A stretch of 63,786 nucleotides of DNA, counting the filler, from Gemmatimonadota bacterium (GTDB taxonomy: Bacteria; 4572-55; J002), in assembly GCA_003697105.1 (NCBI GenBank). It is 8 parts of 8 records of this genome, joined end to end, with 100 filler letters (N's around TTAATTAATTAA, not from the genome) between each part and the next. Parts side by side here need not be neighbours in the genome. Positions count along the whole stretch, not along the records: positions 57,478 to 61,711 come from RFFQ01000003.1; 7 more parts are not named here. One strand, given 5' to 3'. Positions within the stretch are counted from its first letter, which is position 1. The number at the start of each line of letters is the position of its first letter. Of this stretch, positions 5,717 through 61,907 are shown one piece after another. A model generated the notes under the pieces. The model was not told where the DNA came from. It made no database searches and saw only the letters and a program-made list of their open reading frames with translations. The position numbers and the translations under genes are program-made.

Positions 5717-6405
5717 GTTCAAAAAAGCCCATTATTGCCATTGACGGTCCCGCCGGTTCGGGGAAAAGTTCCACGGCACGACAGGTTGCCGCCCGGTTAA
5801 ATTACATCCACATTGATACCGGTGCGATGTACCGTGCGATTACCCTCAAAGTACTACGCCACCAAATCGATGTGAACGATGCCGAAACCATCGGTGAATT
5901 GGCGCACCAAACCGATATCTATCAGGAACGAATCGACGGTGACGTTCATACCTTTTTGGATGGTGAGGATGTTTCTTCGCTGATCCGTACCCCGGAGATT
6001 TCGCAGAACGTGTCGCAAGTCGCCAGTATACCCCGTGTCCGGCAACGGCTGGTGCAATTCCAGCGGCAGATGGGGGAAAAAGGAGGAATTGTCCTCGAAG
6101 GACGTGACATCGGGACGGTCGTCTTCCCCAATGCGGAAATCAAAATCTTTATGCAGGCTTCCATTGAAGCCCGTGCTCAGCGCCGGCTCAAAGATTTGCA
6201 GGCGGATGGCATTGAGGTTGATCTCAAAGAATTGGAAGCCGAAATTGCCGCCCGCGATCACGCGGACTCCACACGCCAGACTAGCCCTCTTAAGCAAGCA
6301 CCGGATGCCATTTTGCTGGATACCACTACTCTGACAATGGAGGAACAAGTTCAATTTATCATTGATTTACATGATCAGTGGCTCAAATCCAGAGATGAAT
6401 CATGA
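5713..6405 (+). CDS. cmk: Cytidylate kinase
   Basis: IAIDGPAGSGKS, DTGAMYRA and EGRDIGTVVFP motifs. Confidence 0.95.
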   Translation: MSSKKPIIAIDGPAGSGKSSTARQVAARLNYIHIDTGAMYRAITLKVLRHQIDVNDAETIGELAHQTDIYQERIDGDVHTFLDGEDVSSLIRTPEISQNVSQVASIPRVRQRLVQFQRQMGEKGGIVLEGRDIGTVVFPNAEIKIFMQASIEARAQRRLKDLQADGIEVDLKELEAEIAARDHADSTRQTSPLKQAPDAILLDTTTLTMEEQVQFIIDLHDQWLKSRDES

Positions 6406-7346
6406 GGAGATTGGTTGTAATGGAAATTCGAGATCAAGTCAGGTTGCCTTTGACCATCAAGCCCGGTTCACCGATCTTCCGAACACGGTTGCCAATTAAC
6501 AATGTGAAAACGTGTGATTGCAAACCCAACCATATTAATTGCTTGACAGCCAAAGAATGGATTAAGTGTCAATTAGGAGTATGGCAGTTTACATATGAAA
6601 AACGTGATATTAGGGATAAAAACTTGCATCCAGCAACTTTCCCCCTTTCGCTAGCCAAAAGAGTGATTAGTTTGTTCACACATCAGGGAGAACTGGTATT
6701 AGACCCTTTTGCTGGAAGTGGAACCACTTTGTTGGCTGCCCAAGACTTAAATCGTAACGCCATTGGATTTGATTTGCAGGAGAAATATGTTGATTTATGC
6801 GCGGATCGCTTGCAAAGTAACAATCTATTTAACCAAGCGCAACAGATAGCTATTCAAGATGATGCTCTGTATATTCCAGAGTATCTGAAACCTGAAAGTG
6901 TGAGTTTGATTTGGACATCTCCACCCTACGCTAATTTACTTAATCGTAAGCGTAAAAATAAATCAAGGCGCGGTATAGAACGGAAAAATGAGCAATTTGG
7001 CAAAATTGAGCAATACTCTCAAAACCCTCGTGATTTGGGCACAATGACAATTGAACAATACACAACTGCGATGGGGGATATTTTTGAGAACCTGCTGCCA
7101 CTTTTGAAACCAAAAGGTCATTGTGTAATTAACGTGCCCGATATGTGGTGGGAAAACAAGAGAATCACCATACATATTGCTCTTGTAGAAGAACTTCGGA
7201 AACGGGGTTATGAATTGCGCAATACCATTATTTGGGATAGAACGAATATTGTAAATCGGGTCGGTATTTTTGGTTGGCCGTCTAACTACATTAATATGGG
7301 AACTACATTTGAATATTTGCTGGATTTCTGGCGTCCGGATCAGTAA
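6402..7346 (+). CDS. DNA amino-methyltransferase, probably N4-cytosine (start may be 6420)
   Basis: HPATFP, motif I VLDPFAGSGTT and motif IV WTSPPY; more AT-rich than its flanks. Confidence 0.85.
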   Translation: MRRLVVMEIRDQVRLPLTIKPGSPIFRTRLPINNVKTCDCKPNHINCLTAKEWIKCQLGVWQFTYEKRDIRDKNLHPATFPLSLAKRVISLFTHQGELVLDPFAGSGTTLLAAQDLNRNAIGFDLQEKYVDLCADRLQSNNLFNQAQQIAIQDDALYIPEYLKPESVSLIWTSPPYANLLNRKRKNKSRRGIERKNEQFGKIEQYSQNPRDLGTMTIEQYTTAMGDIFENLLPLLKPKGHCVINVPDMWWENKRITIHIALVEELRKRGYELRNTIIWDRTNIVNRVGIFGWPSNYINMGTTFEYLLDFWRPDQ

Positions 7347-7393
7347 GGATTATTCCTGCAACCGGCAGCGTTGCTTACGACACCGAGACTCAT

Positions 7394-8176
7394 ATGAAAA
7401 TCTACACGAAAGAATCTCTCATACAAGCACTATGTCAAATCCGTGACATGGGGTGGATACCCAATGCTAGAACGGACAACGATGGTGGTATAGGTAATAC
7501 ATTGGAAGATTTACTCGGTATTGAAGAAAACAATCTCCCAATTCCAAACGCATCTGAATGGGAATTAAAATGCCAAAGGCTGAATACCACGTCGTTGGTC
7601 ACTTTATTTCACATGGAACCATCTCCGCGAGCTCTCAAGTTTGTACCATCTATATTATTGCCCCAATATGGATGGCCTCACCAAGAAGCGGGGCGGAAGT
7701 ACGATACAACGGAAATGAGCTTTCGCCAAACGATTAGCGGGGTATCTCGGAGCGACCGGGGATTTATGGTCGTTGTTGATAGGAATGAGTGCAAAGTACT
7801 GGTATCTTTTGATGCTTCTGCTGTTGATTCGCGACATTCGCAGTGGCTTCAAATGGTAGAAAGGCGGGCAGGATTAGGTGAACTAGACCCTCAACCATAT
7901 TGGGGATTTGCAAATTTAGAGCACAAGGCCGGCACTAAACTTTTGAATTGTTTCTTCGTACAAGCCGAAACCAAGAGAGAGAAAGGGCAGCTTTTCTTCC
8001 GGTATTCAAAGATTTTTATTTTGGAATCCTTTAATGTGGAAGGATTATTGCGTGGGTTGGAGCAGGGATTTGTGTTTGTTGATTTTGACGCTCGTACCGG
8101 ACACAATCATGGCACCAAATTTAGGCTTCGCCGAAATAAATTTCCTGAGCTGTATGAAAAAGTTGTAGAAGTCTGA
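7394..8176 (+). CDS. MvaI/BcnI-family type II restriction endonuclease
   Basis: GGIGNTLEDLLGIEENN, WELK, TLFHMEP and HNHGTKFR motifs; directly follows the methyltransferase. Confidence 0.85.
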   Translation: MKIYTKESLIQALCQIRDMGWIPNARTDNDGGIGNTLEDLLGIEENNLPIPNASEWELKCQRLNTTSLVTLFHMEPSPRALKFVPSILLPQYGWPHQEAGRKYDTTEMSFRQTISGVSRSDRGFMVVVDRNECKVLVSFDASAVDSRHSQWLQMVERRAGLGELDPQPYWGFANLEHKAGTKLLNCFFVQAETKREKGQLFFRYSKIFILESFNVEGLLRGLEQGFVFVDFDARTGHNHGTKFRLRRNKFPELYEKVVEV

Positions 8177-8400: not shown

Positions 8401-8500
8401 NNNNNNNNNNNNNNNNNNNNNNNNNNNNNNNNNNNNNNNNNNNNTTAATTAATTAANNNNNNNNNNNNNNNNNNNNNNNNNNNNNNNNNNNNNNNNNNNN
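8401..8500. other. Artificial contig linker
   Basis: N44-TTAATTAATTAA-N44, stops in all six frames. Confidence 0.99.
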
Positions 8501-9495: not shown

Positions 9496-12400
9496 ATGCC
9501 TGAGGAAAAACGCAAAAAAAGTTCCCTCAAAGACCGGCTTAAAACGTCTAAACGTGTTCCGGTAAGGGATAAGGACACCCCGGCATCCGCGGATTCCTCG
9601 CCGGGGAGTTTCATTAATCCGGATGATATTGAAAAAATAGACCCTACCGCGTCGGGTACATTGTTTGAATCCGTTCTGCAAGAATACGATACCTTATCCA
9701 TCGATGATGGCAGTTCTAAACCCGCCTCCCCGCCTCCCTCCCCTGCCCAGCGTGCATCAAAGGATATTACCACGGACCCGGACGCCATCGATGTTGATTT
9801 AGACCCGCAAGTATTTGACTCTGTACTAAAAGAGTACGATGAAAAATCCATCGACCCTGAAAAAAAACCACCCGCGCCCAATCCCGCCGGTGAAATCGAT
9901 CTAGGTATTCAGAAATTAGACGACATCTCACCGGAATCGGAAGAACACCACACGGATTTTGAACATTTTACCCCAACCGAACATCCGAAAACCCCAGCCG
10001 TAGCACCTGCCGATTTGGGAATCGAACAATATACCCGCCATTCTGTGACCCCAGAACCGTCTTCGCTCTCGGATTTAGAGCATTTCCAGCCCCCCCCGCC
10101 CGCCGCCGAAAACACGGATAAGACACCCACCCGCCGCTTACCGGATTTAGAAGTGTTTCATGCCCCAGAAACCCCCCCTACATCGGAAAAAGAGAGCACC
10201 GAAGCGATCGATGACATTGATGCCGTTTTCGGGAAATTGACCCAACCGGAGTCCGAATCACCGCTACCCTCCGCCAGCCTTGAGGAAGGAACAGAAACCA
10301 CCTCTACGCCACCATCCGAATCCGCGCCCCCAGACGCGCTCGACCTACGGCAACAGGATACCAGCCACTCCCCGGATGAAATGACGATTGATAATATGTT
10401 TATTGGCAGTGGTAATCCCAATATCATTTTAGAATCCGAGATCGGTACACGGGCAGACATCATTGATCGGGAGTCGCTTCTGGCGGATCAACTACGGGCA
10501 TTCTTCACTGCCGAACGCGAGGCGATTGAACTTCAATTAACGGAGCATACCCCGCAAATAGAAACCCGCCGACGAGATTCACTGACCGAAGAATATTATC
10601 TCAAAATTCTGCTGGATGCGGAGGATGAAGATTGCCCCTCCCGTGTGAGCCTGTTTGTCAATCTACAAATGTTCCACATTATGGCAATCCGAAATGAGGT
10701 GGAACAAGCTATCGCCCATCATAGCGAAAACCTTGAAAAAACGCTCAAAATCACGGATAAGATCACTAAAATCTGGAACGCACTGCCCCGCCAAAAACGT
10801 GATCTATTTATCAACAAAATGCTGGCAACCCTCTCTACCAAAGCCATTGAACGTGGTATAGGTTATCTAAACCTGATCTTGGCAGAGATCAACCTGCTGG
10901 ATAAACACCACATATACGACTATCTGCGCTTAGCAATCGTCTCACAGCTATTACGTGAGCGCAATTCCGGCTTAACCCTCAGCAAGGAATTTGAGTTGGT
11001 GCGGCAATTTAGCAATCTACTAAAAACCTTTTATGAAGGTAACGATCCTCCCGCCAAAGTGGAAGAAGCGATTGAAACCCTGTTTACGGGGCGTAGCGGG
11101 GTCAATATTGACGTGATTACCCAGATCGACGGGAGTCCGATGCACCGGATGCTCTCCGCGCTAGGCGATCTGGATGCGAATATGGCAAAACATCATATTG
11201 ATTGGATTATTCTTCAGTTACAGCCCTTGAGTCTTCAGGAAAAAACAGAATACGTACGGGATATTGCAAACGGCTTGGTCTCTTTGCGTAATGCGGTCTG
11301 GAACGGGTTGAGCCGGGTGGAGATTGTCCCCGTCGAACGGATGCGCTGGTTTTTGAATGAACTGATTTTGCATTTTCAGAAGGTACCCGCTCCCGTGTGG
11401 CAGGTGTTTGCCAGCAAAAAGATGGAACCCGCCGTGACCAATATTCTGGGGATTGCCAACCATCGCTCCCCGTGGTATTTCCGGCAACTCCTGCCGCACC
11501 TGACCACCATCAAAACAGTCTCGGGTACTATCATTTGGCACATTTTTAGTACGGTCTTCGATCTGCTCACCGATCCCGATTTTTTCCAAAATTTATTTGT
11601 GGAGCATTTCAACGAGTGGCTCGCCAAACAGGAGGTACCACCGGTCACGGAAGATGAGTTGATCGATGGAACATTTGCCGTCTGTTTGAAAAAGACAAAA
11701 CCGGAAGATTACATCGATATTCGCCGTGCCATTTTGGAGCGGCAAGAAATCGCATTTTTTGAACAACTTATACGGTTATTAAATGTCGATAAACTCCGCC
11801 CAACGGAATTTGCCCAGAACTTTTTATCCCCAGTGATAGCGTATCTCAATCTGCTGACATTCCCGCTCACCGAATTTTCCGCGATTGTTCAAGATCTGAC
11901 CGGAAAGAAGAAAGTCGCCCCCCAACGCCTGCGCATTGCTTTGGAGGTCGGAACTTATTTAGAAAAACATTACGATTATTTCCGAAACCTTTCGGAAGCA
12001 CAAGATAAATTGGCGTTCAAAGTGTCGATCATTCGCCATTTTACCGAGATTGGCGAACTGCTCGGTATCACGGAATGCGAACGCTTCCTACATGCAGAGG
12101 CAGATAAACCGAGTATTATGATCCGCTATTTGGGTCAGATGAGCTACAATCGCGCTCCAATAGCGAACATCGGGATGCTGGTTTCCCAGTTACAGCCCCG
12201 TAATGTTCCCCAACGGGTACTCATTGTGCACTTGGGTGCCCTCATTGAAGAACGTCTTGGCGCAAAACTGCGGGAAGTGGATAGTGGCGACCTATACGAT
12301 CTGCGCGAAAAAACAATGATTCTGTGTGAGCGGATCGACCGCAAATCCCAGTTCAAATTTATCGAAGAGGGGTTAGGTTCTCTGCTGGATCGTATCTTTT

Positions 12401-14586: not shown

Positions 14587-14686
14587 NNNNNNNNNNNNNN
14601 NNNNNNNNNNNNNNNNNNNNNNNNNNNNNNTTAATTAATTAANNNNNNNNNNNNNNNNNNNNNNNNNNNNNNNNNNNNNNNNNNNN
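14587..14686. other. Artificial contig linker
   Basis: N44-TTAATTAATTAA-N44. Confidence 0.99.
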
Positions 14687-31243: not shown

Positions 31244-31280
31244 TTGACAACCGGCAGTCACAGGCTGTATATATTTACAG
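31244..31280 (+). promoter_or_regulatory. Promoter (-35 TTGACA) overlapped by a LexA/SOS-type box at 31265-31280
   Basis: CTGTATATATTTACAG (CTG-N10-CAG) over the -10 region; TGAC-N8-GTCA palindrome at 31245-31260. Confidence 0.7.
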
Positions 31281-32345: not shown

Positions 32346-32825
32346 TTGATGTCCAATACAAATCCATCCCTTGGTGCGTTGCAAACAATCACACCGCACT
32401 TAATTTGCGCTGGCGCAAAAAACGCCATCGAGTTTTATCGACGCGCTTTTGGTGCCGAACTTCTTACCCAGATGGAGGGTCCGGATGGGCGGGTGCTGCA
32501 CTCTGCCTTGAAAATCGGTAATTCACAATTTTATGTGGTAGATGCTTATCCCGAATGGGGTTCAACAGACCCCCAAACCCTCGGAGGTTCTCCGGTGACG
32601 ATCCATTTGTATGTACCGGATGTGGACGCCGTCTTTCAACGGGCAGTCGATGCCGGTGCGAAGGTATTAATGGAGCTTCAAGATACGTTTTGGGGTGACC
32701 GGTACGGCAAACTGGCCGACCCCTTTGGGCATGAATGGTCGCTTGCCACACCGATTAAACAGATGAGCAAAGATGAAATTGAAGCTGCCGCCAAAAAGAT
32801 GTTTGGAGGGCAATCAAATGGCTAA
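32346..32825 (+). CDS. VOC family protein (PhnB-like)
   Basis: ITPHL, AIEFYRRAFGA and DTFWGDRYGKLADPFGHEW motifs. Confidence 0.9.
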   Translation: MMSNTNPSLGALQTITPHLICAGAKNAIEFYRRAFGAELLTQMEGPDGRVLHSALKIGNSQFYVVDAYPEWGSTDPQTLGGSPVTIHLYVPDVDAVFQRAVDAGAKVLMELQDTFWGDRYGKLADPFGHEWSLATPIKQMSKDEIEAAAKKMFGGQSNG

Positions 32826-33189
32826 ACGGGCAAAAATTGGTACTATTCTGTGGCGAGATTTAACCGTGCCGGATGCCGCGGCAATCAAAGACTTTTATTG
32901 TGATGTGGTGGGATGGAAGGCAGAAGTTCATGACGGGTGTGATGACTTCAATATCCTCACTCCGGCGGAGGGCGAATGTGTGGCGGGAATATGCTATGCC
33001 AAAGGAAACAATGCGAATCTTCCCCCACAATGGTTGATCTACATTACGGTGGAAAATGTGGCAGAAAGTGCCCAAAAATGCGTCGAACGCGGCGGTAAAC
33101 TGGTGGATGGTCCCCGGCAGATGGGCAATCACTACTTTTGTGTGATTCAAGACCCCGCCGGGGCGGTTGCGGCACTGATTGAAGGATAA
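32818..33189 (+). CDS. VOC family protein (glyoxalase/bleomycin resistance)
   Basis: WRDLTVPDA, FYCDVVGW, PQWLIYITV and IQDPAGA motifs. Confidence 0.88.
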   Translation: MAKRAKIGTILWRDLTVPDAAAIKDFYCDVVGWKAEVHDGCDDFNILTPAEGECVAGICYAKGNNANLPPQWLIYITVENVAESAQKCVERGGKLVDGPRQMGNHYFCVIQDPAGAVAALIEG

Positions 33190-33233
33190 TAGACCCGTGG
33201 TTTCCACTTCATGTTAGACAGGAGAGATGGTAC

Positions 33234-33638
33234 ATGTCCACGACACCAACCCAATCCCCCCACTTCCACATTGTTGGCGTGAATTACATCAGTATTTATG
33301 TCAAGGATTACGAGGCAGCACTTGCATTTTACAGCCATGTGCTCGGTAAACCTGCCTTTCAGGAAAAAACGACGCGCGGCTGGTCCTTGGGAAACACGTG
33401 GTTAACGCTGTTCCCTGCCAAAGCCGGTACAAATCCCACTGGTAACCCGCAAAATATGGAATTTGCCATTCAGGTGGCGACTCCAGATGAGGTGGATCGC
33501 TTACACCAAGCGTTTTTAGACGCCGGAGCCACCGATACCTGGACACCCGAGGATACTTGGATGTATGAAAACATGCGTTTTGGCGCAATTGATGACCCCT
33601 TTGGAGTGCGTATCGACATTTATTGCCCATTAAAATAG
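33234..33638 (+). CDS. VOC family protein
   Basis: VKDYEAALAFYSHVLG and DDPFGVRID motifs. Confidence 0.85.
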   Translation: MSTTPTQSPHFHIVGVNYISIYVKDYEAALAFYSHVLGKPAFQEKTTRGWSLGNTWLTLFPAKAGTNPTGNPQNMEFAIQVATPDEVDRLHQAFLDAGATDTWTPEDTWMYENMRFGAIDDPFGVRIDIYCPLK

Positions 33639-40450: not shown

Positions 40451-40550
40451 NNNNNNNNNNNNNNNNNNNNNNNNNNNNNNNNNNNNNNNNNNNNTTAATT
40501 AATTAANNNNNNNNNNNNNNNNNNNNNNNNNNNNNNNNNNNNNNNNNNNN
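40451..40550. other. Artificial contig linker
   Basis: N44-TTAATTAATTAA-N44. Confidence 0.99.
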
Positions 40551-48366: not shown

Positions 48367-48400
48367 AAAACGCCCCGTCAGATAAAACTGACAGGGCGAT
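48367..48400 (-). terminator. Terminator after tRNA-Trp
   Basis: CGCCCTGTCAG...CTGACGGGGCG followed by TTTT on the minus strand. Confidence 0.8.
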
Positions 48401-48404
48401 TACA

Positions 48405-48480
48405 TGGCAGGAGTGGCAGGAATCGAACCCGCAGCCCTCGGTTTTGGAGACCGATGCTCTGCCAATTGAGCTACACTCCT
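48405..48480 (-). tRNA. tRNA-Trp (CCA)
   Basis: AGGAGTGTAGCTCAATTGGCAGAGCATCGGTCTCCAAAACCGAGGGCTGCGGGTTCGATTCCTGCCACTCCTGCCA; full cloverleaf. Confidence 0.97.
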
Positions 48481-48493
48481 ATATTTGGACGGT

Positions 48494-48522
48494 ATATTAG
48501 TGCGATTGATCCCGATTGTCAA
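48494..48522 (-). promoter_or_regulatory. Sigma70-type promoter of tRNA-Trp
   Basis: TTGACA-17 bp-TAATAT just upstream of the tRNA. Confidence 0.75.
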
Positions 48523-50985: not shown

Positions 50986-51085
50986 NNNNNNNNNNNNNNN
51001 NNNNNNNNNNNNNNNNNNNNNNNNNNNNNTTAATTAATTAANNNNNNNNNNNNNNNNNNNNNNNNNNNNNNNNNNNNNNNNNNNN
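50986..51085. other. Artificial contig linker
   Basis: N44-TTAATTAATTAA-N44. Confidence 0.99.
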
Positions 51086-54155: not shown

Positions 54156-54255
54156 NNNNNNNNNNNNNNNNNNNNNNNNNNNNNNNNNNNNNNNNNNNNT
54201 TAATTAATTAANNNNNNNNNNNNNNNNNNNNNNNNNNNNNNNNNNNNNNNNNNNN
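54156..54255. other. Artificial contig linker
   Basis: N44-TTAATTAATTAA-N44. Confidence 0.99.
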
Positions 54256-57377: not shown

Positions 57378-57477
57378 NNNNNNNNNNNNNNNNNNNNNNN
57401 NNNNNNNNNNNNNNNNNNNNNTTAATTAATTAANNNNNNNNNNNNNNNNNNNNNNNNNNNNNNNNNNNNNNNNNNNN
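57378..57477. other. Artificial contig linker
   Basis: N44-TTAATTAATTAA-N44. Confidence 0.99.
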
Positions 57478-59838: not shown

Positions 59839-59915
59839 AAAAAAACGGATACAGAGCCGCCAGACGCTATTTTGCGGGGTAGAGTGCGTCATGCGAGCTA
59901 CTGAATCCGTTTTTT
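59839..59915 (-). terminator. Long imperfect hairpin with U-tail ending the SOS-box operon
   Basis: AAAAAACGGAT...ATCCGTTTTTT arms enclosing further stems (CAG/CTG, GACGC/GCGTC). Confidence 0.6.
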
Positions 59916-59996: not shown

Positions 59997-60317
59997 TTAG
60001 CGAGCGTAGTCAAAATTTCGGTGAGGGTAATTTGCCGGGCGGGCTTTTGCACCCGGATAAGCACGAGATTGCCGTCGCTTTTTCGGTTGGCGTTGTGCCA
60101 AATAGGGATGATTCAGCGTGTCGGGTTGGTGATCGCGGTCATACGCAGTCGCCGCGAAAAAAATCCCTAGCATTCCGGCACCGCAAATTCCGGCATAGAG
60201 CATCATTTGTGGATGCCCATTAAAAACAAGCAACGTTACCACCAGCATAACACCGCCAAAAATGAAGGCAAGTACTAGATTACCCAAAACCGGATTTCGT
60301 TCAAATGTGCGAATCAT
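59997..60317 (-). CDS. Small 2-TM membrane protein with a basic C-terminal tail
   Basis: Two hydrophobic helices; RBS AAGGAG; ATGA overlap with the upstream gene. Confidence 0.75.
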   Translation of the reverse strand: MIRTFERNPVLGNLVLAFIFGGVMLVVTLLVFNGHPQMMLYAGICGAGMLGIFFAATAYDRDHQPDTLNHPYLAQRQPKKRRQSRAYPGAKARPANYPHRNFDYAR

Positions 60318-61501
60318 ACAGGACTCCTTTCTGCTTCTGCTTGAATCAAATCAAGCATTTGAGATTTAGGGACATTCGCATACGTGGCATTGCCCCGTAC
60401 ATCAATTAAGTTTAAGTGTTTCAGATAATTATGACACCGATCCGCCTGTCCTTTACTGATACCAACCTTATCAGCAACAGACCGCCGTCCTTGTAGCCGC
60501 CCACCTTTACCCATTTTACTAAACAGCCCCTCCACATAACGGGGTAAAATGGGAATCAAATCTTCAACATCATCCGTGAACGTTTCCGGCGTAGGTTCTT
60601 CAAAATAGAGGCGATTTTTTTTAGGGGTCTCACGGTCTGTATCAAACCGGAAAGCTCTTTCCATACGGGGTTCGGGTTCGTGTAGGTCATCTTCTTGATT
60701 ATATTCTAAATAGTCCTCCGGCGCATGTTCGTATAAACGACCGCTACCATTTCCATTCAACTGGTGCGCTGCCGGAGGTTCAAATTGATCGTAATTGGGA
60801 TCACCTTTGCGGGCATTCCGTTTGGCATGCGCCGGCCGGAATCTCGCCCCATTCGAGCGAAAAACATAGACCCCGGAGATGACCGCCACCAATTCGAGTA
60901 GAATACCATAGGTAGCGTTGATCCAGAGTTCGACCAGTTCGGGGTCCAGTCCACCAAAAAACTTGCCGAGTACCACATACAACGCACTGCTGGCTTGTCC
61001 GGTGGAAGGGGTGTAACTTGCCAACTGTTGGGTGAGCTGGTTTTTTTGTGCCAGCAGGGCATTTGCCTCTTCCATCAATTGCTGTTTGCGGGTATGGAAA
61101 TTGGCGGGCATGTTGTTGGCGGTATGCTGAAGGTTGGCAATCTGGGTTTCCAGCCCTTCAATCTGGGACTGTAAACTGCGGAAGCCGGCGCTCTGTTGGG
61201 TCGCTATCGCTATTTTCTCCGCGTGTTGCACTTGAAGCCAGCCCAGCGTCCCGACAATGGACATCAAGGTGAGAATGATTCCGACGATAAGCGCAAACAG
61301 GTCCCGGTTGACCACCCCGACCGCATGAAATACAATTTTGGCAGGCTCCAGAACCGTGGCCAGCCCCACCGCAATGATCGTCGCAAACCCGGTAGTTGCC
61401 ATCGAGGCAAGTAAATTGCAAGTGAAAATCCACGAAATTAAAAACGAACCGATAGAGACAAAAAATAAAATGGGCTGAAATAACCAATGACGCGTATCCA
61501 C
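60314..61501 (-). CDS. Membrane protein: 3 TM, coiled coil, 1 TM, acidic linker, C-terminal HTH-like domain
   Basis: GGAGG 6 nt before GTG 61501; heptad region LQSQIEGLETQIANLQ; GRRSVADKVGISKGQADRCHNYLKHLNLI. Confidence 0.8.
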   Translation of the reverse strand: MDTRHWLFQPILFFVSIGSFLISWIFTCNLLASMATTGFATIIAVGLATVLEPAKIVFHAVGVVNRDLFALIVGIILTLMSIVGTLGWLQVQHAEKIAIATQQSAGFRSLQSQIEGLETQIANLQHTANNMPANFHTRKQQLMEEANALLAQKNQLTQQLASYTPSTGQASSALYVVLGKFFGGLDPELVELWINATYGILLELVAVISGVYVFRSNGARFRPAHAKRNARKGDPNYDQFEPPAAHQLNGNGSGRLYEHAPEDYLEYNQEDDLHEPEPRMERAFRFDTDRETPKKNRLYFEEPTPETFTDDVEDLIPILPRYVEGLFSKMGKGGRLQGRRSVADKVGISKGQADRCHNYLKHLNLIDVRGNATYANVPKSQMLDLIQAEAERSPV

Positions 61502-61529
61502 GACCCCACCTCCATTCAATAAGAAACCA

Positions 61530-61558
61530 TTGACAAGGAGACCAAGCCCATATAGATT
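61530..61558 (+). promoter_or_regulatory. Antisense sigma70 promoter
   Basis: TTGACA-17 bp-TAGATT. Confidence 0.7.
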
Positions 61559-61564
61559 ACCACC

Positions 61565-61637
61565 GAATCCAGCAGGCTTGCCTGTTGATTTTGCAAAACC
61601 GTGTGGATGAGGTCGCCAACCGTTTCACACGGTTTTT
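61565..61637 (+). ncRNA. Putative cis-antisense sRNA (about 75 nt)
   Basis: Lies downstream of the promoter; hairpin CAGCAGG-CTTG-CCTGTTG, then terminator AAAACCGTGTGGA...TTCACACGGTTTTT. Confidence 0.6.
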
Positions 61638-61647
61638 CTATGCCGTA

Positions 61648-61699
61648 ACCTGTAATTATTTACAGGTGTAAATATAACTGTATATATGTACAGTGTCAA
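61648..61699 (-). promoter_or_regulatory. Sigma70 promoter with two LexA/SOS-type boxes
   Basis: TTGACA(61699-61694)-17 bp-TATATT(61676-61671); CTGTATATATGTACAG (61678-61693) and CTGTAATTATTTACAG (61650-61665). Confidence 0.8.
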
Positions 61700-61711: not shown

Positions 61712-61811
61712 NNNNNNNNNNNNNNNNNNNNNNNNNNNNNNNNNNNNNNNNNNNNTTAATTAATTAANNNNNNNNNNNNNNNNNNNNNNNNNNNNNNNNN
61801 NNNNNNNNNNN
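61712..61811. other. Artificial contig linker
   Basis: N44-TTAATTAATTAA-N44. Confidence 0.99.
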
Positions 61812-61907
61812 GGACACACCCGTACCCATTTCGAACACGGTCGTTAAGCCCTTCTGCGCCGATGGTACTGCACTGGAGACGGTGTGGGAGAGTAGGGCAT
61901 CGCCGGG
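61812..61907 (+). rRNA. rrf: 5S rRNA, 5' truncated
   Basis: CACCCGTACCCATTTCGAACACGG...GTTAAG...CGCCGATGGTACTG...GTGGGAGAGTAGG. Confidence 0.95.

Follow-up and report, generated by a model that had tools for sequence, protein, structure and literature searches.

The subject of this analysis is a two-gene operon on the minus strand of a 63,786-nucleotide stretch of DNA (the window) from the Gemmatimonadota bacterium assembly GCA_003697105.1, in which gene 1 encodes a protein of 395 amino acids and gene 2 a protein of 106. The reading that we favour, with a probability of about 0.5, is that this is a self-contained accessory operon, probably derived from a phage or integrative element, that it would be silenced both by LexA and by an antisense RNA, and that its gene 1 product would tether DNA to the membrane. 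The evidence that carries this reading is the presence of two perfect LexA-type palindromes on the strongest promoter of the window, a putative antisense transcription unit inside the leader, the predicted architecture of the gene 1 protein, and the occurrence of its relatives in phages and integrated elements.

The promoter region contains the following features:

61694-61699, minus strand: -35 element TTGACA of the operon promoter, from the consensus scan.
61671-61676, minus strand: -10 element TATATT of the operon promoter, separated from the -35 element by a 17-nucleotide spacer.
61678-61693: SOS box 1, CTGTACATATATACAG on the minus strand, of the form CTGT-N8-ACAG, occupying 16 of the 17 spacer bases.
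61650-61665: SOS box 2, CTGTAAATAATTACAG on the minus strand, of the form CTGT-N8-ACAG, lying over the predicted transcription start at about 61664.

The promoter, TTGACA-17-TATATT, matches the consensus at 11 of 12 positions and is the sole site of at least 11/12 on either strand of the window, where 25 sites in 127,572 nucleotides reach at least 10/12. Perfect CTGT-N8-ACAG palindromes occur three times in the window against 0.29 expected, a count reached in none of 100 shuffles, and it is very unlikely that two perfect 16-mers would fall jointly on the window's strongest promoter by chance. Both boxes have the characteristics of LexA operators, being palindromes with an AT-rich centre that overlap the promoter or the start site, and box 2 together with its flanks forms a perfect 20-nucleotide palindrome. 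Scored as 20-mers against the Escherichia coli SOS consensus, TACTG(TA)5CAGTA as it appears in the available part of PMC9578287, box 1 matches at 17 of 20 positions and box 2 at 13 of 20; this consensus is of the type bound by the LexA of β- and γ-proteobacteria, and the host's own LexA specificity may differ. No lexA gene was found in the 63.8-kb window.

The third perfect palindrome (31265-31280) is intergenic on another contig, matches the same consensus at 15 of 20 positions, begins 15 nucleotides after a TTGACA hexamer (hexamer and box together at 31244-31280) and has the flank GGTTACG in common with box 2. Its intergenic position, the hexamer and the common flank make it look like the operator of one global repressor, and this locus may be another member of the same regulon. 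The genes that follow it encode a TPR protein and three proteins of the glyoxalase/bleomycin-resistance family (32346-33635). Taken together, LexA repression of the operon promoter is likely. Colicin operons also carry paired boxes, an arrangement that points to tight and late induction, and a near-consensus promoter under two LexA-type operators predicts tight repression with damage-dependent, probably late, induction.

Downstream of the promoter lies a leader in which a second, opposing transcription unit can be recognised:

61502-61664, minus strand: predicted 5' leader of about 163 nucleotides, from the start at about 61664 to the GTG at 61501.
61530-61558, plus strand: antisense promoter TTGACA-17-TAGATT, 10/12, inside the leader.
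61565-61640, plus strand: predicted cis-antisense RNA of about 76 nucleotides, a 5' hairpin followed by a terminator hairpin.
61595-61641, plus strand: terminator hairpin with arms AAAACCGTGTG and CACACGGTTTT, a 20-nucleotide loop and then TTTTTCT.

A site of at least 10/12 would be expected by chance 0.032 times per 165 nucleotides of one strand. The terminator arms form an 11-bp perfect inverted repeat (61595-61605 and 61626-61636) about 70 nucleotides downstream of the antisense promoter, and the predicted RNA would be complementary to the messenger RNA (mRNA) leader from about +25 to +100. Folded as an 81-nucleotide plus-strand transcript, it forms a pair of hairpins with an energy of -30.4 kcal/mol (z -3.95; none of 200 shuffles was as stable), and since its reverse complement reaches -23.6 only, G-U pairs favour the plus strand. 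The whole window was screened for units of this kind, defined as a promoter of at least 10/12 followed within 30-150 nucleotides by a stem of at least 8 bp and a T-run; 2 of 25 promoter-like sites passed, namely the antisense unit and a transfer RNA (tRNA) gene (48408-48480, minus strand; unit 48371-48522) with its own 10/12 promoter and terminator, which served as an unplanned positive control of the screen. By comparison, the fold of the sense leader is unexceptional, with z -1.53 and 13 of 200 shuffles equally stable; in its minimum free energy (MFE) fold, which is not significant, the Shine-Dalgarno (SD) sequence GGAGG (61509-61513) is paired in a local hairpin. Neither strand of the leader matched a family in Rfam. 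An antisense RNA from the strand opposite the leader is plausible, at about even odds.

An earlier reading of this DNA, made from the sequence alone (the sequence-only reading), had proposed a TTGACA-17-TATATT promoter with one box filling its spacer and another over the start, a leader of about 160 nucleotides, and an opposing TTGACA-17-TAGATT promoter with terminator inside that leader. Each of these elements was recovered here, the promoter at 61699-61694 and 61676-61671, the boxes at 61678-61693 and 61650-61665, the leader at about 163 nucleotides, and the opposing promoter and inverted repeat at 61530-61558 and 61595-61636. Its pair of ATGA-coupled genes was likewise found on reading the minus strand:

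60314-61501, minus strand: gene 1, 395 amino acids, GTG start, with GGAGG 7 nucleotides upstream of the GTG.
59997-60317, minus strand: gene 2, 106 amino acids, with AAGGAG upstream and its start overlapping the gene 1 stop (ATGA).
59840-59915, minus strand: hairpin and T-run ending the operon, before a separately promoted Rrf2 gene.

The limits of the operon follow from the ATGA coupling, the SD motifs and the downstream terminator, and alignments with homologues back the GTG at 61501 as the start of gene 1. The G+C content of the operon is the same as that of the remainder of its contig.

An AlphaFold2 model of the gene 1 protein, built on 60 relatives, has a mean predicted local distance difference test (pLDDT) score of 83.1. 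It contains helices at residues 8-33, 38-65, 68-103 and 187-231 and a helical hairpin formed by 105-129 and 136-161, while hydropathy places transmembrane (TM) segments at 10-28, 33-51, 68-86 and 190-208, a 3+1 pattern also seen by hydropathy in distant homologues. An acidic disordered linker (244-303), whose length varies in the family, leads to a winged helix-turn-helix (wHTH) at 319-392, with helices at 319-326, 339-346 and 350-362, strands at 366-369 and 372-375, and pLDDT above 90. The layout of three TM segments, coiled coil, TM segment, acidic linker and helix-turn-helix given in the sequence-only reading is thus upheld by both model and hydropathy. The net charge amounts to +4 just after the fourth TM segment, to -12 for the linker and to +6 for the C-terminal domain, which suggests, by the positive-inside rule, that the hairpin is periplasmic and the winged helix cytoplasmic.

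The C-terminal domain fits what is expected of a wHTH, namely a three-helix bundle with a β-hairpin wing that can be superposed on known examples. Foldseek returned CggR, BusR, GntR and CRP at probability 1.00 and E-values of 0.02-0.1, the best being the DNA-binding domain of CggR at E 0.021; VIA aligned residues 313-389 with CooA (Z 9.1, 73 residues aligned, root-mean-square deviation (rmsd) 2.2) and CAP (Z 9.0, 75 aligned, rmsd 2.5); and a profile search against Protein Data Bank (PDB) sequences found CodY at E 0.0028. No single wHTH family in Pfam reached its cut-off with the gene 1 protein or with 60 family members. Nor did either operon product reach the cut-off in Pfam, NCBIfam, PHROGs or PADLOC, the sub-threshold matches being coiled-coil noise. 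The sequence-only reading had also seen a likeness to DUF4407- or Spd-like proteins, which found no support: DUF4407 gave no Pfam match at E ≤ 1 for the protein or E ≤ 0.01 for the 60 members, and the Spd half, for which the libraries searched contain no dedicated profile, was only weakly tested. The N-terminal membrane domain found nothing in the PDB with Foldseek at E ≤ 1e-3, and a wide VIA search gave generic helical hairpins only, at Z ≤ 9.5, below the level that is meaningful for helical proteins. Its domain-only model, built on 10 sequences, is of low confidence (pLDDT 64.9) and too poor to search with, and for this reason a new fold is not claimed. The nearest clusters in the ESM Atlas are auto-named 'Preprotein translocase subunit SecY' with no Pfam family, a name taken here as an annotation artefact and as a lead only.

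The gene 2 protein has TM segments at 14-32 and 38-56, the second helix being glycine-rich, and a basic C-terminal tail, so hydropathy bears out the two-TM, basic-tailed partner that had been described. As a conserved feature of the system this partner fails, for a search of 5.8 billion clusters returned the gene 2 protein itself and no relative, and gene 2 is absent from the other loci of the gene 1 family; it appears to be a lineage-specific add-on. A complex prediction of the gene 1 membrane domain with the gene 2 protein scored 0.00, which gives no answer either way.

The gene 1 family is rare and has no Pfam entry. A word-indexed search of the same 5.8 billion clusters found 10 close proteins, the query included, to which a 60-sequence profile added one distant protein, and an exhaustive search returned 109 representatives at E ≤ 1e-3, of which 35 reached E ≤ 1e-10 and 7 reached E ≤ 1e-30. 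When 115 retrieved proteins were scanned with hidden Markov models (HMMs) of the two domains, 84 carried both, 26 the membrane domain only, 4 the winged helix only (short fragments) and 1 neither, and it is the two-domain layout of those 84 that defines the family. At E ≤ 1e-5 the family occurs in 9 of 400 genomes of one bacterial class, with one further genome not scored. A protein- and alignment-based search of genome contigs and viral contigs returned no homologous locus, a metagenome scan found two only (L001 and L002), and tblastn gave no match for three family members against phages or for the gene 1 protein against plasmids.

Several of the contexts in which family genes are found are those of mobile elements. 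One gene sits in an island beside an excisionase-like gene (phrog_2620), a DUF932 gene and an integrase fragment (L053); a second adjoins a DUF2857 gene (L058), a family whose papers, as far as their accessible text goes, mostly concern genetic islands and integrative and conjugative elements; and locus L002, beside the 56%-identical homologue, has genes for an MT-A70 methylase and for a Gp3-like recombination directionality factor. In the first of these, about 50 nucleotides resembling the 3' half of a tRNA (~9700-9790) lie beside the family gene and the excisionase-like gene; ARAGORN made no call there, and the stretch may be the attachment-site remnant of an integrated element. Other members have a different setting. 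At L055 and L056 a shorter form is flanked by hemE and a class A penicillin-binding protein gene, a conserved position in the chromosome, and three proteins of 55-60% mutual identity (L052, L054 and L057) have unrelated neighbours. Save for that one syntenic chromosomal pair, no neighbouring gene is common to the family loci.

Phage relatives were also recognised by structure and profile. Full-length Foldseek matches in BFVD at E ≤ 1e-3 comprise six phage proteins that are close to the query in length (lowest E 2.6e-07), with low TM-scores of 0.23-0.37. One of the six, orf6 of Tetrasphaera phage TJE1 (299 amino acids), matches the C-terminal domain HMM at E 8.3e-05 and gives no match to the N-terminal domain HMM; its hydropathy shows TM segments at 10-28, 72-90 and 190-208, and a long polar region separates the second from the third. 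In size and layout these proteins, among them orf6 with its C-terminal winged helix, resemble the gene 1 protein, but the likeness is tempered by the low TM-scores and the missed N-terminal domain, and they have neither a known function nor LexA boxes. The orf6 gene lies directly downstream of an annotated lysozyme/lytic transglycosylase gene (L220, 2552-4008), and holins are often found at the position next to a phage lysozyme gene. The available portion of PMC9892861 describes TJE1 as a virulent phage. A phage or mobile-element origin of the family is likely, in line with the phage or plasmid source that had been suggested from the sequence.

Within this framework the operon would work as follows. 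Host LexA would occupy both SOS boxes, the one in the spacer and the one over the start site of a promoter close to the sigma-70 consensus, and the operon would be transcribed only after RecA-stimulated cleavage of LexA during DNA damage. From the opposite strand of the leader, an RNA of about 76 nucleotides would be made constitutively and would pair with the leader from about +25 to +100, so damping leaky transcripts by duplex-dependent decay, by interference or by aiding termination at the hairpin. Once induced, the gene 1 product would reside in the inner membrane with four TM segments, its hairpin on the periplasmic side and its winged helix in the cytoplasm on an acidic disordered tether of about 60-90 residues, and would hold the DNA of the element or of the chromosome at the membrane. 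This last step is the least secure, the role of a membrane tether for DNA being inferred from the modelled anatomy alone.

Direct LexA control of mobile-element genes and silencing by LexA together with an antisense RNA are both already known; it is the cargo family that is undescribed in the libraries and literature searched. Papers on membrane-anchored winged-helix, prophage and LexA combinations or on DUF2857, supplements aside, contained no description of the gene 1 family, and no described system with this combination of parts was found in the literature searched, as the sequence-only reading had supposed. The closest regulatory parallels are the E. coli type I toxin-antitoxin loci tisB/istR-1, symE/symR and dinQ/agrB, the subject of a review (PMC4147584). 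In these an SOS box lies on the promoter of a gene for a membrane or toxic product, the leader is long, and an RNA of about 75 nucleotides from an opposing, constitutive-looking promoter silences leaky mRNA, an arrangement that is predicted here too. They differ in that the products here, at 395 and 106 amino acids and with no toxin family match, are not the peptides of usually fewer than 60 amino acids or the SymE-type protein of such loci, that there are two operators rather than one, and that the antisense RNA would lie opposite the mid-part of the leader and not opposite the ribosome-binding site. In phage GIL01, the host LexA represses the element-borne promoter P1 through SOS boxes, as the accessible parts of PMC4551915 and PMC9578287 report, and the operon would resemble it in this respect. 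Unlike GIL01 and the colicin systems, this operon carries no lytic switch and no bacteriocin, its cargo being a single membrane/winged-helix gene and a gene with no known relative, and its residence in an element is putative, on a 4.2-kb contig ending at the promoter.

For the protein itself, the nearest functional parallel is phi29 p16.7, a phage membrane protein which, according to the available text of PMC4974454, recruits replicating phage DNA to the membrane and shares with the predicted gene 1 protein a membrane anchor, a helical or coiled-coil segment and a C-terminal DNA-binding domain. It was not among the listed matches of the profile search against the PDB or of the Foldseek and VIA searches, the two may be distantly related, and the likeness is best regarded as a functional analogy only, with no homology found. 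At about 130 amino acids, p16.7 crosses the membrane once and has its coiled coil in the cytoplasm, whereas the gene 1 protein is predicted to have a 3+1 TM pattern, a hairpin in the periplasm and, at the end of a long acidic tether, a winged helix. FtsK and SpoIIIE begin with four TM segments, continue through a long linker that varies and end in a winged helix known as the gamma domain. The gene 1 protein shares the four TM segments, the linker and the winged helix, and one of the 60 family members gave a weak FtsK_gamma match in Pfam (E 9.2e-05), but it has no ATPase motor: residues 244-303 are disordered, no P-loop or RecA-like ATPase domain was seen in the gene 1 model or in Pfam, and the likeness is architectural only.

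A number of observations weigh against a LexA- and antisense-silenced tether operon. The regulation is not shared by the family: a CTGT-N8-ACAG box with at most one mismatch and an AT-rich centre was found upstream of none of nine family genes within up to 600 nucleotides, and 11 loci (L043-L051, L001 and L002) contain no perfect box at any position. In the 56%-identical homologue on L001, where the box search covered 81 nucleotides only, an open frame running from the contig end stops 22 nucleotides before the start, and nothing like the gene 1 leader is present in those 81 nucleotides. The combination of boxes, antisense unit and gene pair, whose joint conservation the sequence-only reading had set as its own test, is thus not supported as a conserved system among the loci compared, with boxes at 0/9 loci, no common neighbour and a gene 2 that has no relative; any such regulation would be local. 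These loci are at most 56% identical and belong to other hosts, and for this reason the missing boxes are no argument against LexA control here. A gene 1 copy of at least 90% identity, accompanied by an identical gene 2, exists on an 89.9-kb contig outside this set. On the contig itself, any control element further upstream is invisible, as the end falls 12 nucleotides before the -35 element. The terminator hairpin also forms, more weakly, in the sense leader, where it is followed by UUUUG, and could be a weak attenuator instead; the winged helix might bind a protein and not DNA; and the N-terminal domain, for which neither a solved nor a named relative was found, is the most conserved part of the protein, a hint at some specific activity in the membrane that a tether does not explain. 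The marker-like genes of the window, encoding HtpG, a MiaB-like protein and a phosphodiesterase, match mixed phyla and give no usable host taxonomy.

Several other explanations have to be set beside the tether. The TM helices are very highly conserved among close homologues, which a simple tether does not explain, and this keeps alive the view that the product is a toxin or acts on the envelope. In one form, which we regard as unlikely, the operon is a toxin- or lysis-like membrane module with type I-style silencing, in which damage to the membrane, most likely by a holin-like gene 2 protein, leads to persistence, abortive infection or release of the element under severe damage. Its double repression would follow the logic of tisB/istR-1, symE/symR and dinQ/agrB (PMC4147584, in the part available), the SD sequence is sequestered in the leader MFE fold, the gene 2 protein has two TM segments and a charged tail, the TJE1 relative directly follows a lysozyme gene, and there are weak PHROG matches to Rz-like spanins (E 0.018, at coiled-coil level). 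These spanin matches, however, are confined to the helical hairpin, both proteins far exceed the usual size of type I toxins, the antisense RNA would leave the ribosome-binding site uncovered, no toxin, holin or defence family was matched in PADLOC, Pfam or NCBIfam, it is hard to see what a pore former would do with a winged helix in the cytoplasm, and gene 2, the supposed holin, has no relatives and is missing from the other loci. A bolder version, which seems to us rather improbable, is that of an SOS-gated, antisense-silenced, phage-derived membrane effector of about 400 amino acids, whose winged helix would seize DNA while the conserved four-TM/hairpin domain acted on the envelope, as a type I-like toxin or an abortive or exclusion switch. 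Little credence can be given to an SOS cell-division checkpoint, in which a membrane protein induced by LexA cleavage would block the divisome, the part played by SidA, YneA and SosA where SulA is absent. Small LexA-controlled membrane proteins are the usual division inhibitors outside the enteric bacteria (PMC9578287, PMC6851548 and PMC13396833, as far as their available text goes), and the two proteins of this operon likewise have TM segments and are encoded downstream of SOS boxes; yet the known inhibitors are short, single-pass and devoid of a DNA-binding domain, with no sequence relation found, and a family that is so rare and patchy (9/400 genomes of one class and 10 close proteins in 5.8 billion clusters), frequently in mobile contexts and elsewhere lacking the boxes, is a poor fit to a core checkpoint gene.

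A membrane-sequestered transcription factor, acting on specific promoters, possibly through its own palindromes, either in place or after cleavage of the linker on an envelope or periplasmic signal, would suit the winged-helix fold of CRP, GntR, CodY or IscR type, the long protease-accessible linker of variable length and a periplasmic domain able to sense a signal. We nevertheless think it very doubtful, because no site-2-protease or anti-sigma-like partner lies nearby, no conserved operator was found upstream of nine homologues, and the third palindrome, on another contig with unrelated genes, favours a global regulator such as LexA. Finally, the regulation may have been over-read, the palindromes binding another factor or none, the plus-strand promoter being silent and the hairpin an attenuator of an ordinary accessory gene. 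The lack of box conservation in homologues is in keeping with this, as are the scoring of the boxes on an E. coli consensus that is perhaps not of the host's LexA type and the nature of the promoter and terminator scans, which are consensus matches and gave, in a 2-kb region, 4 promoter-like sites against 2.4 in shuffles. It is made highly improbable by the way in which two perfect 16-mers fall together on the window's strongest promoter, by the combined promoter and terminator screen, which yielded nothing but the antisense unit and a true tRNA gene, and by the difference in fold energy between the strands (-30.4 against -23.6).

The wider setting of the operon is limited by the structure of the window, which is a chain of eight contig pieces separated by seven linkers, each N44-TTAATTAATTAA-N44, so that gene order across them is artificial. 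The operon's own contig spans 57478-61711 only (4.2 kb).

8401-8500, 14587-14686, 40451-40550, 50986-51085, 54156-54255 and 57378-57477: linkers between other pieces or preceding the operon contig.
61712-61811: linker N44-TTAATTAATTAA-N44 adjoining the operon contig at its promoter end.

Owing to this last linker, the 5S ribosomal RNA (rRNA) gene and ahcY beyond it are no true neighbours of the operon; the 5S rRNA is a fragment (61805-61898, model positions 14-110) cut at the contig end, where the assembly evidently broke inside an rRNA operon. Elsewhere in the window, an N6/N4 DNA methylase gene followed by a MvaI/BcnI-family restriction endonuclease gene (6402-8173) is likely a type II restriction-modification pair, and a gene for a WYL/WCX-domain regulator followed by one for a Csm6-type HEPN ribonuclease, an accessory of type III CRISPR (clustered regularly interspaced short palindromic repeats) systems, stands alone on a 3.1-kb contig (54471-56831). 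The HtpG of the window is 65-69% identical to proteins of Marinimicrobia, Calditrichia, KSB1 and Poribacteria, the MiaB-like protein 43-47% identical to those of many phyla, and the phosphodiesterase at most 49% identical to its matches (49% to DPANN archaea), scattered and distant matches that would suit either a lineage with no close representative in the genome collection or a mixed assembly.

The support for a damage-inducible tether operon comes from one truncated locus, in silico. If the reading is true, the silencing by LexA and antisense RNA seen with the tiny type I toxins would extend to a membrane protein that is large and carries a DNA-binding domain, and the inducing signal would provide a first handle on a family which is without a Pfam entry and is met repeatedly in phages and integrated elements. 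Tethering of DNA to the membrane upon damage would be relevant to the way in which mobile elements arrange replication, exclusion or shut-down of the host there.

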